Source: a virus. From it: a DNA stretch of 64,000 bases. The translations under genes were made by a program, and so were the position numbers. Below, piece by piece: positions 53,727-54,884 of the stretch (position 1 is the first letter of the stretch; each line of letters starts with the position of its first letter). Location: the IMG/VR virus record IMGVR_UViG_3300045988_116240. One strand, written 5' to 3'. The notes under the pieces were generated by a model that was given only the letters and a program-made list of their open reading frames with translations, was not told where the DNA came from and made no database searches.

Positions 53727-54884
53727 CTATGATGAATGAATTGATGCCTCTATCGCCTTGAATATCTCAAATGCTACTTGTGGGACGATGGCGTTTCCGT
53801 AGGCTTTTATCGACTCTTGTCTCCATTTTGTGAAAGGAATGGCAAGGTAGTCCACATCAAAGGGTAACCCATCATCTCTTCCACAAACAGGGGGTTGAGT
53901 TGGGAAGTCTTTCCACCGTTCTGCTGACAATGCCGGCCTATCATTACTGGTATATTGCATAAGGCATCGTCTCTTCTTTTCCCGTTCTTCCGAACTAACC
54001 CTGTCGGTGATACCGATGGTTGATAGTCTCTCATTGTCGGAGTCGGCAAAAGCATTGATACAGCAAGATCGTTCAACTCCATTGTCCAGCCTTGCGATAT
54101 TTTCCTCCTCGATCTCCCGTCCGTTATTTTTGAGCCATTTTTGTAGCTTCTCGCCGTAGGTGTCGGTAGCATCTTTTTGTAGGCCGCCTCCGGTAATCCC
54201 TGTTGTTTGCTGTTCGGTCCCCTTCGCTTGAAATCTTGGGCCGTCGGTGTCGGAAGCAACGAGACATCCATGAACCTTGTCTTTCCGTTCTTGTCGCAAA
54301 CCTTCAATCCTTGCGTCTGAACGGTCGGAAGCAATGAACCATACCCTGTCCCTCCTGTGAGGGGCTCCGACACCGCAAGCTGGAATAAGAATCGGCTGGA
54401 CGGAATATCCCTCACGCTCAAGATCTCGGCAGACGGTCTCGATAACGTATTCTTGCTCGAGTAGCGTTTCCTTGTCAGACGTTTCAAACAAAGAGGCTTG
54501 ACTTTCCACCGTAACCTCACTGCCGGGTTGTACCATCGATAGGATTCCAGCAACGTTCTCACCAATGACCCAAGTGGGTCGTATCTCTCGTATAGCACGG
54601 AGCATTTCTGGCCAGAGGTAACGGTCATCCTCCTGTCCTTTTCGTTGTCCTGCGACTGAAAACGGCTGACAGGGGAATCCTCCTGTGAGTACGTCAACCT
54701 TCCCTCTCCACGGAGTGAAATCAGTTCTTGTAATATCGTCATATTGAATGCTTTTTGGGAAATGAAACCTCAGTACCTTTTGGCACCACTCGTTAATCTC
54801 GCAATGGAACAGGTTCTCCCATCCCATCCATTCGGCGGCAAGGTCAAAACCGCCCACGCCAGAAAATAATGATCCATGTGTCAT
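53727..54884 (-). CDS. dcm: DNA (cytosine-5)-methyltransferase (frame A)
   Basis: Motif I SLFSGVGGFDLA, IV GGFPCQPFS, VI VIGENVAG, VIII APHRRDRVWF, X AYGNAIVPQV. The middle third is low-complexity in this frame. Confidence 0.85.
   Translation of the reverse strand: MTHGSLFSGVGGFDLAAEWMGWENLFHCEINEWCQKVLRFHFPKSIQYDDITRTDFTPWRGKVDVLTGGFPCQPFSVAGQRKGQEDDRYLWPEMLRAIREIRPTWVIGENVAGILSMVQPGSEVTVESQASLFETSDKETLLEQEYVIETVCRDLEREGYSVQPILIPACGVGAPHRRDRVWFIASDRSDARIEGLRQERKDKVHGCLVASDTDGPRFQAKGTEQQTTGITGGGLQKDATDTYGEKLQKWLKNNGREIEEENIARLDNGVERSCCINAFADSDNERLSTIGITDRVSSEEREKKRRCLMQYTSNDRPALSAERWKDFPTQPPVCGRDDGLPFDVDYLAIPFTKWRQESIKAYGNAIVPQVAFEIFKAIEASIHSS
53807..54742 (-). other. 311-codon same-strand overlapping ORF (frame B = frame A +1) with LLPTPT repeats and a motif-IX-like C-terminus
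   Basis: SLLPTVQT, SLLPTPTAQDFK, KMLPTPTARSYK, MLLPTPTMRDYQ ... LNPLFVEEMMGYPLMWTT. Differences between repeat copies are synonymous in this frame. Confidence 0.5.

Follow-up and report, generated by a model that had tools for sequence, protein, structure and literature searches.

Two overlapping reading frames in a phage C5-cytosine DNA methyltransferase locus and their probable use as two chains of one enzyme

The virus record IMGVR_UViG_3300045988_116240 of IMG/VR, analysed here as one stretch of 64,000 nucleotides (nt) and referred to below as the window, carries on its minus strand a C5-cytosine DNA methyltransferase (MTase) gene in which two long open reading frames (ORFs) lie over the same bases. 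The question raised by this locus is whether both frames are used and, if so, how the parts of a canonical MTase that are distributed between them could form one enzyme. The outer frame, ORF A (53727-54884), encodes 385 amino acids (aa) and a stop, and the inner frame, ORF B (53807-54742), encodes 311 aa and a stop. B begins 142 nt downstream of the A start, which places it in the +1 frame, and it lies wholly within A, with an overlap of 936 nt. This arrangement had been given in a preliminary description of the locus, and an ORF listing reproduced it exactly. The evidence presented here supports dual coding of the locus well, to a degree that makes it very likely, and the model that best fits this evidence, a heterodimeric enzyme whose two chains are read from two frames of the same DNA, is considered probable.

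ORF A belongs to a known family. It matched Pfam PF00145 over residues 2-379 (E=3e-41), TIGR00675 with 114.5 bits against a cutoff of 100.65, and phrog_363 (E=4e-72), and its N-terminal half was aligned with M.HhaI (E=1.4e-17). Motifs I, IV, VI, VIII and X of C5-MTases are all carried by this one polypeptide, at the positions that had been proposed for them. Motif I (FSGVGG, binding of S-adenosylmethionine) occupies 54849-54866, starting at 54866, and can be read in the A frame only, as the B frame has stops there. Motif IV, GFPCQPFS with the catalytic Cys72, lies at 54657-54680 (PCQPFS from 54674), where it aligns with GFPCQAFS of M.HhaI and where the same bases read DSPVSRF in B. It is followed by motif VI (ENV, 54552-54560, starting at 54560), in which Val111 is encoded by GTT, and by motif VIII (PHRRDRVWF, 54336-54362, RRDR from 54356), whose bases read EPLTGGTGY in B. 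The remainder of A consists of a spacer of residues 186-323 (53916-54329), which is stop-free, hydrophilic, of low complexity and unconstrained in its amino acids, a conserved pre-X segment from W324 to S358 (WKDFPTQPPVC...FTKWRQES, 53811-53915), and motif X (YGNAIVPQV, 53775-53801, GNAIV from 53798). Motif X begins two codons past the TAA stop of B (53809-53807) and shows the pattern of variation of a region coding in A only. The canonical order of a single chain, in which the target-recognition domain (TRD) and motif IX follow motif VIII and precede motif X, was not found in A; both of these elements were found in frame B.

ORF B can be divided into three parts. Its probable start is the ATG at 54740-54742, formed by the A Tyr48 codon TAT and the G of the next codon. 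The first 135 aa (54338-54742) form an N-terminal domain overprinted on A motifs IV-VIII and ending over motif VIII, and the TRD region that follows (aa 136-276, 53915-54337) consists of four modules, each opening with a hexapeptide of the form (L/M)LPT(P/V)(T/Q), namely LLPTVQ at 54334-54317, LLPTPT at 54259-54242, MLPTPT at 54172-54155 and LLPTPT at 54052-54035. The third part is motif IX, GKTSQLNPLFVEEMMGYPLMWT (53849-53914), which was aligned to residues 268-290 of M.HhaI, NGKTRKLHPRECARVMGYPDSYK; the B-frame segment LNPLFVEEMMGYPLMWT starts at 53899. The same bases encode FPTQPPVCGRDDGLPFDVDY, a part of the pre-X segment, in A, so that this stretch is truly dual-coding. The four repeats and the segment resembling motif IX had been noticed beforehand, and both were found where expected. 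Searches with B gave a match to the PHROG family phrog_1008 (E=5.3e-29, B aa 15-300, profile positions 37-281 of 329), whose name, DNA methyltransferase, is an annotation label without tested function. Proteins resembling B number 4022 in protein databases, and the TRD and motif IX part of B alone is represented by 2368 clusters at 50% identity.

An overlap of this length could be an artefact or a product of decay, either through two compensating indels in an ordinary gene or because B is open by chance or composition. The preliminary description had argued against chance from a naive estimate, (61/64) to the power 311, and a formal codon-shuffle test, in which the synonymous codons of one frame were permuted 3000 times while the protein and its codon usage were kept, was put in its place and also rejects chance. 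Shuffling the A codons of the window gene put on average 9.9 stops into the B frame across the B ORF, and shuffling the B codons put on average 13.0 into the A frame; a stop-free frame was obtained in 0/3000 permutations in both cases. The same test applied to nine divergent homologous loci gave stop-free frames in at most 1/3000 permutations, and in most loci in none, the expected number of stops across the 10 loci being 6-10 in B or 8-17 in A.

The layout was also found to be kept in relatives. Amongst 61 distinct IMG/VR loci, A was open in all and B was stop-free in 58 from approximately A codon 38 to approximately 27 codons before the A stop, while the +2 frame of the same loci contained 20-34 stops and B-frame stops were dense just outside the B ORF. 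Antisense frames, like the +2 frame, were full of stops. A scan of bacterial and other genomes, with one genome per species, yielded 80 further loci, 60 of which showed the nested layout as first scored, and most of the others do so too if motif X may read GNAM or if TGA is taken as Trp. In about 75 of the 80, neither frame is interrupted over the shared stretch. The nested chain of these relatives is 206-452 aa long, and the loci come from many Bacteroidota families, Paenibacillus, Brevibacillus, Oribacterium, a Burkholderiaceae metagenome-assembled genome (MAG), Cloacimonadota and others. Taken together, over 100 phage and prophage loci, belonging to several bacterial phyla, retain the nested two-frame layout.

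Cultured phages are included in this set. Searches with B by tblastn returned full-length, single-piece matches in the Bacteroides phages BS-TP4 and BKO1-TP3 and matches of 28% identity in 48 Paenibacillus larvae phages. One of the latter, phage Leyra, already has both nested coding sequences in its annotation, as gp61 (1239-2276) and, in the +1 frame, gp62 (1423-2127); many other P. larvae phage records have two methyltransferase features under the B match. The publication describing the 48 phages names two methyltransferase genes and does not comment on them. The layout is thus present in the isolate genomes of BS-TP4, BKO1-TP3, the 48 P. larvae phages and the chromosome of Bacteroides xylanisolvens XB1A, which excludes the paired indels that had been a concern, and B, rather than being broken by stops in its homologues as had been considered, is open in 58 of the 61 viral loci and in most of the genome loci. 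Single-nucleotide frameshift alleles do occur in relatives (a 1-nt deletion in locus L169 and an A7-to-A6 change in L170-L172) and lend an artefact some plausibility. Against it stand the shuffle tests, the closed +2 and antisense frames, the same layout in more than 100 independent loci including finished isolate genomes, and the lack of any relative with motifs I to X in a single frame among the top matches of a search with a composite protein (described below), and we regard an artefact as extremely improbable.

Two of the genome loci call for a remark on their origin. L102 (JAEWQO010000088.1), labelled as an Actinomycetes MAG, has the ORF layout and match statistics of the B. xylanisolvens and B. 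hominis loci in the group L099-L103, and its contig is therefore probably mis-binned. L164 lies on a contig of a Methanosarcinales (archaeal) MAG and may be viral or contaminant DNA.

Open frames can be kept without their amino acids being selected, and the pattern of substitution was therefore compared between the frames along the gene. Ratios of nonsynonymous to synonymous substitution (dN/dS) were computed by the simple Nei-Gojobori method for the window gene and 19 close relatives, without correction for the overlap. In motifs I-VIII the ratio was 0-0.29 for A, and it was 0.71-1.36 for B over motifs IV-VIII. The order was reversed in the TRD (A 1.30, B 0.28) and in motif IX (A 0.90, B 0.28), and it turned back in motif X (A 0.10, B 0.98). 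Diversity by codon position followed the same course, peaking at A position 3 in the ends coding in A only and over motifs IV-VI, and at A position 1 (equal to B position 3) in the TRD and motif IX. The proposals that selection in the middle of the gene acts on B and that the canonical motif order is split as A, B and A again are both supported by these two measures. Conservation of single columns agreed, as none of the A columns between residue 185 and W324 was conserved except a nearly invariant G195, while W324, F327, P328, T329, Q330, P332, D338-F342, W354, E357 and S358 of the pre-X segment were invariant. With its stretch between motif VIII and pre-X unconstrained, A would have no TRD of its own, the TRD modules being selected in B and not in A. 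Altogether, both frames appear to be maintained and under amino-acid selection, with the selected frame switching from A to B and back to A along the gene.

The N-terminal domain of B, which lies over catalytic motifs of A, was examined separately. The position of the B ATG is shared by 7 divergent loci of Bacteroidota type, and A Tyr48, the codon that supplies it, is TAT in 29/33 representatives, whereas TAT makes up approximately 55-70% of the codons in other Tyr columns. As a rule, Bacteroidota initiate without Shine-Dalgarno sequences; in non-Bacteroidota loci, a GGAG-type motif precedes the first B start by 7-12 nt (AAGGAG at 7 nt in L086, AGGAG at 9 nt in L085 and GGGAGG at 12 nt in Leyra).

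A site-wise codon test was applied to 38 representative loci with less than 80% A identity, using background codon usage from flanking genes. Conserved A residues in the A-only ends showed a codon choice close to background, with an observed minus expected pairwise codon identity of 0.03, while the overlap across motifs IV-VIII showed a mean excess of 0.147 (Mann-Whitney p=3e-5 against the A-only regions). This is the excess conservation of A synonymous sites that the preliminary description had suggested looking for. One such site is Val111, held as GTT in 37/38 loci (expected pairwise codon identity 0.26) because B reads Leu64 from it. Others include Ala169 (GCT in 37/37 loci, read as Leu122 in B), Pro164 (CCG in 32/34, Arg117), Val172 (GTC in 32/35, Ser125), Val162 (GTC in 28/33, Ser115) and Leu90 (CTC in 29/38, Ser43). 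At Val111, Ala169 and Pro164, other codons would alter the B residue without creating a B stop, the exception being GTA at Val111, and the constraint thus acts on the amino acids of B and not only on its open frame. The N-terminal 135 aa of B therefore appear to be under amino-acid selection at specific residues.

Downstream of this domain, the TRD region varies in a modular manner. Relatives with 57-95% identity differ by whole (L/M)LPTPxAxD modules that were gained, lost or swapped, and B-type proteins contain 0-10 motifs of PTP type. The modules exchanged among loci L004-L046 are 25-60 aa long, and both frames are open in every combination, suggesting that the modules circulate only among two-frame genes.

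The identity of motif IX in B was examined with a composite protein made of A 1-186, B 136-309 and A 359-385. Over motifs IX and X it aligned with M.HhaI as GGKTSQLNPLFVEEMMGYPLMWTTLPFLSQNGDKSIKAYGNAIV against NGKTRKLHPRECARVMGYPDSYKVHPSTSQ----AYKQFGNSVV, so that the motif IX proposed for the B frame is collinear with that of M.HhaI and has the canonical spacing to motif X of A. A 66-column profile of B motif IX joined to A motif X, built from 22 loci, had M.HhaI 268-314 as its only match across the PDB (E=1.2e-3), and the Pfam score rose from 142.3 bits for A alone to 149.8 bits for the full composite. The nested chain would therefore be the one that supplies motif IX. In most loci the stop of B lies directly where motif X begins, so that B closes at the point where the small domain naturally gives way to that motif.

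The two frames meet most closely at motif IX and pre-X, where each limits the synonymous sites of the other. B limits those of A at Cys334 (TGT in 31/31 loci), Asp338 (GAT in 38/38) and Gly339 (GGG in 38/38); A limits those of B where A reads FPTQPPVC, with Leu as CTC in 33/38 loci, Pro as CCC in 30/37, Phe as TTT in 30/35 and Gln as CAA in 29/33. This reciprocal constraint covers about 10 codons (FPTQPPVC in A, KTSQLNPLF in B), and as one recoded chain cannot hold both readings, at least two translation products should cover the segment.

Two ideas on the origin of this segment were considered and dropped. The pre-X segment of A could have been a frame-shifted tandem duplicate of the motif IX segment, with split genes arising by unzipping of the overlap, and the nucleotide similarity was not significant in L084, L085, L086 and L168 (P = 0.08-0.6). 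The well-known motif EP.V.RVADG.P.RVD could also have been a mere -1 reading of LNP.FVEWLMGFP.GWT, and this is true only in part, since a real pre-X segment stands in frame downstream of motif IX in Firmicutes-type and split-type genes.

Natural variants of the gene provide information about how the parts of A and B belong together. In split-type loci (L084 1814-2894, L085 1733-3077, L086 1436-2753 and L168 906-2049), the A frame stops soon after motif VIII, and the +1 ORF contains the B N-terminus, TRD, motif IX, pre-X and motif X in a single frame that still overlaps motifs IV-VIII, the beta chain beginning approximately 100-140 codons upstream of the alpha stop. In L086, the gene caller trimmed beta to 250 aa, avoiding the overlap. 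In fused-type genes, represented by many database proteins, A motifs I-VIII are joined in frame to the B TRD and motif IX, and the protein ends at the B stop. L169 is phage BS-TP4 (L001) with a 1-nt deletion at gene position 708 and is otherwise 99.9% identical, and L170-L172, three fetched loci from three different samples, carry an A7-to-A6 deletion (junction near 2130 in L170) that gives the same fused protein on 12 contigs. In these frameshift alleles the downstream A frame with pre-X and motif X is open but disconnected. Such alleles could reflect switching similar to phase variation or simply common inactivation. The fused form was not seen among the 61 IMG/VR loci, and the top matches of the composite search included only fusions without motif X and ordinary A-type proteins, none of them with motifs I to X in one frame. 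The split and fused variants functionally link the B TRD and motif IX to the catalytic domain, and motif X can apparently sit on either chain.

The same observations bear on programmed recoding, in which the ribosome would shift by +1 after motif VIII and by -1 before motif X to yield one canonical chain, the long open frames being incidental or side products. The collinearity of the A/B/A composite with M.HhaI, with canonical spacing of motifs IX and X across the B stop, would be expected of such a chain; in-frame fusions of motifs I-VIII to the TRD and motif IX exist in nature, and one of them arose at an A7 run, a hint of slippage in some relatives. Recoding offers no reason, though, for A to be stop-free through 140-300 unconstrained codons in every locus, or for B to be open, conserved at its start and selected in its amino acids across motifs IV-VIII, and it does not accommodate two frames selected in the same 10 codons at motif IX and pre-X. 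The sites themselves are also missing, as a slippery -1 heptamer at the junction from B to A was found in 2/38 loci only, the sequence after motif VIII is not conserved and the TRD of the window has no homopolymer longer than A5. Neither a conserved slippery site nor a downstream 0 frame free to close, both marks of a programmed frameshift, was found, and we consider recoding quite unlikely.

A further alternative is that B is a real protein unrelated to the enzyme, for example a DNA-binding regulator or an anti-defence factor, and that A alone is the MTase. The N-terminal domain of B (aa 1-135) leaves room for this, as searches of Pfam, NCBIfam and the PDB gave no recognisable family for it. 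So do some Bacteroides prophage loci in which A is interrupted by TGA under the standard code and B is intact. The distribution of these TGA codons points elsewhere. In loci L099-L104, L107-L110, L112, L116, L117 and L120-L123, from Bacteroidota genomes and probably prophages (for example NC_021017.1, B. xylanisolvens XB1A, 3069825-3073073, and NZ_CP192724.1, B. hominis), every internal stop of the A frame is TGA, with TAA as its real terminator, and stops of all kinds are absent from the B frame. Most of the TGA codons fall at conserved Trp positions (AAE*MGW, DFRx*RGKI and FSR*RQASIKGYGN) and a few in the unconstrained spacer. Their position at conserved Trp suggests recoding rather than decay, and the pattern looks like recoding of TGA to Trp or suppressor-dependent expression in standard-code hosts. 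An unrelated B is also opposed by the lack of constraint in A between motif VIII and pre-X (dN/dS of 1.30, no conserved columns), which leaves A without its own TRD, by the motif IX homologue that B carries at the canonical distance from motif X, and by the split-type relatives, in which motif X is in frame with B. For these reasons we find a role of B outside the enzyme unlikely.

The model that accounts best for the locus is therefore one of two polypeptides, both encoded on the minus strand, that together would form an orphan phage C5-cytosine DNA MTase. In canonical C5-MTases, motifs VIII and X flank an inserted small domain. Chain A would represent the whole of the large catalytic domain, carrying motifs I-VIII together with motif X, in which the spacer of approximately 140 unconstrained aa fills the position of the small domain, the sole apparent demand on it being to contain no stop codon and so to keep pre-X and motif X attached to motifs I-VIII. 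Chain B, from its own ATG, would be the small domain, with four target-recognition modules of LLPTPT type and motif IX, and its first 135 aa may act as a docking domain that holds the detached small domain on A. A complex of A and B would methylate phage DNA at one or several targets and shield it from host restriction. The association of the chains, the role of the B N-terminus and the number of specificities are deduced from sequence comparison and should be read as such. Of the explanations offered in the preliminary description, a genuine overlapping gene and a split two-chain MTase are jointly supported by the A/B/A switch in selection, the collinearity of motifs IX and X and the openness of both frames in more than 100 loci, and recoding by +1 and -1 shifts is disfavoured on the grounds given above. 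That description had not mentioned the precedent of M.EcoHK31I, the selection on the N-terminal 135 aa of B, how large the family is, or its split and fused forms.

Several observations weigh against this model. B alone gave no meaningful match in Pfam, NCBIfam or the PDB, either as a single sequence or as profiles, and the homology of its motif IX is statistically modest, resting on a 21-bit profile match and a 7.5-bit gain in Pfam score. AlphaFold2 provided no structural support, with a predicted local distance difference test score (pLDDT) of 34 for B from an alignment of 33 sequences and 36 for A from 29; even the canonical catalytic domain of A was not modelled, indicating that the alignments were too shallow. 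Amongst close relatives, dN/dS of B over motifs IV-VI is approximately 1-1.4, which limits the constraint on the B N-terminus to a subset of residues. Very divergent loci resembled one another in the B frame more than under a null that preserved the A protein along with its codon usage and the avoidance of stops (z=8.6 and 7.8 for the overlap, 0.2 for the control), but these scores may be inflated by mosaic recombination, the window gene and L047 sharing 88% of fourfold sites in motifs VII-VIII; the site-wise codon test was run as backing because this comparison is open to such recombination. In addition, fusions of motifs I-VIII to the TRD and motif IX are fairly common in metagenomes, which could mean that a single chain is functional too or that the gene is frequently inactivated. 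Finally, no reason was found why A does not end after motif VIII, as it does in the split relatives.

A wider interpretation, which we judge about as likely to be right as wrong, is that the locus belongs to a large family of phage MTases, spanning several phyla and built on obligate dual coding. The 135-aa docking domain would have been overprinted on motifs IV-VIII and kept since then, the TRD subunit would be modular and possibly multispecific, and the other frame would serve as a stop-free tether. Single indels, some of them at homopolymer runs, would convert the nested, split and fused forms into one another and could switch specificity or activity.

The surroundings of the gene are consistent with an orphan enzyme. 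In the window it stands in a phage module for replication and DNA metabolism, in the order NinG/Rap, HNH, replication initiator, MTase and pyrophosphatase, and in BS-TP4 and BKO1-TP3 the homologous gene lies beside a replication initiator, and none of the genes nearby is annotated as a restriction enzyme. This setting makes an orphan anti-restriction MTase the most likely function. The start codon of A (ATG, 54884-54882) overlaps the TGA stop of an upstream 80-aa ORF (54881-55123) as ATGA at 54881-54884, which suggests translational coupling inside the replication-module operon. Further upstream, at 55592-56939 on the minus strand, two adjacent ORFs (56364-56939 and 55592-56389) both match the N-terminal part of replication initiators (phrog_2562), and the upstream one, 56364-56939, contains in addition an HNH endonuclease domain (aa 110-183). 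The pair may have come about by duplication or splitting of an initiator or by insertion of a homing-type HNH.

Long same-strand overlapping genes in bacteria and double-stranded DNA phages are rare and often disputed. The locus described here brings strong evolutionary support of two kinds, stop avoidance and a frame-specific, even reciprocal, constraint on synonymous sites, together with thousands of homologues and cultured phage-host systems. If the wider interpretation is right, A and B would rank among the longest same-strand overlapping gene pairs known from prokaryotic viruses and among those conserved most deeply, and standard gene finders would be missing or mis-calling thousands of proteins. 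Large same-strand overlaps are normally disallowed by gene callers such as Prodigal, which report only one of the two ORFs, and A then enters the annotation as a complete MTase though it probably has no recognition domain. Databases carry both products as separate, unexplained entries. The swappable TRD modules, open in both frames, would be a natural system for the evolution of specificity and could inform the design of split methyltransferases.

Literature searches found precedents in M.EcoHK31I and M.AquI and no description of this two-frame family. In same-strand overprinted genes of viruses, one frame is unconstrained and hydrophilic where the other is selected, and constraint on synonymous sites is the signature (PMC8227390). 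The family described here differs from these in that its two products would be parts of one enzyme and the constrained frame alternates along the gene. It also differs in extent, with an overlap of 0.6-1.36 kb conserved across bacterial phyla in double-stranded DNA phages. The multispecific phage C5-MTases (SPR, phi3T, rho11s and H2) carry several tandem TRDs in their variable region, in a single chain and one frame. They resemble the present system as orphan C5-MTases borne by phages in which the variable region is an array of recognition modules. The modules of the window, (L/M)LPTPxAxD followed by 20-40 aa, show no detected sequence similarity to theirs, and the window enzyme may be multispecific.

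Closer in architecture are enzymes made of two chains. M.AquI, which recognises CYCGRG, consists of an alpha subunit with motifs I-VIII and a beta subunit with motifs IX-X. As in M.AquI, the chain is broken in the variable region, and the split-type relatives L084, L085, L086 and L168 share its division of motifs. The window gene differs from M.AquI in keeping motif X on the first chain, as A reads through to it, and the split-type relatives differ in that their beta overprints motifs IV-VIII of alpha, whereas the M.AquI genes are essentially adjacent.

M.EcoHK31I, from Escherichia coli HK31, recognises YGGCCR and is the closest precedent, the likeness being one of architecture. It needs two chains for activity, and its beta chain is encoded within the alpha gene in another frame (PMC2836561; PMC3404938). 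B likewise lies inside an MTase ORF on the same strand and in another frame, and in both systems motif IX falls to the nested product and motifs I-VIII and X to the outer one. They differ in the placement of the TRD, as the beta chain of M.EcoHK31I holds motif IX alone and its alpha chain retains the TRD, whereas the nested chain of the window has the whole TRD and the variable region of the outer chain is an unconstrained spacer. The beta chain of M.EcoHK31I is reportedly about 61 aa long, compared to 311 aa for the nested chain of the window, which includes a 135-aa domain over motifs IV-VIII. The locus thus suggests that a C5-MTase can have its small domain on a separate chain, read in another frame from the same stretch that this domain replaces, which would extend the single precedent of M.EcoHK31I to a widespread family.

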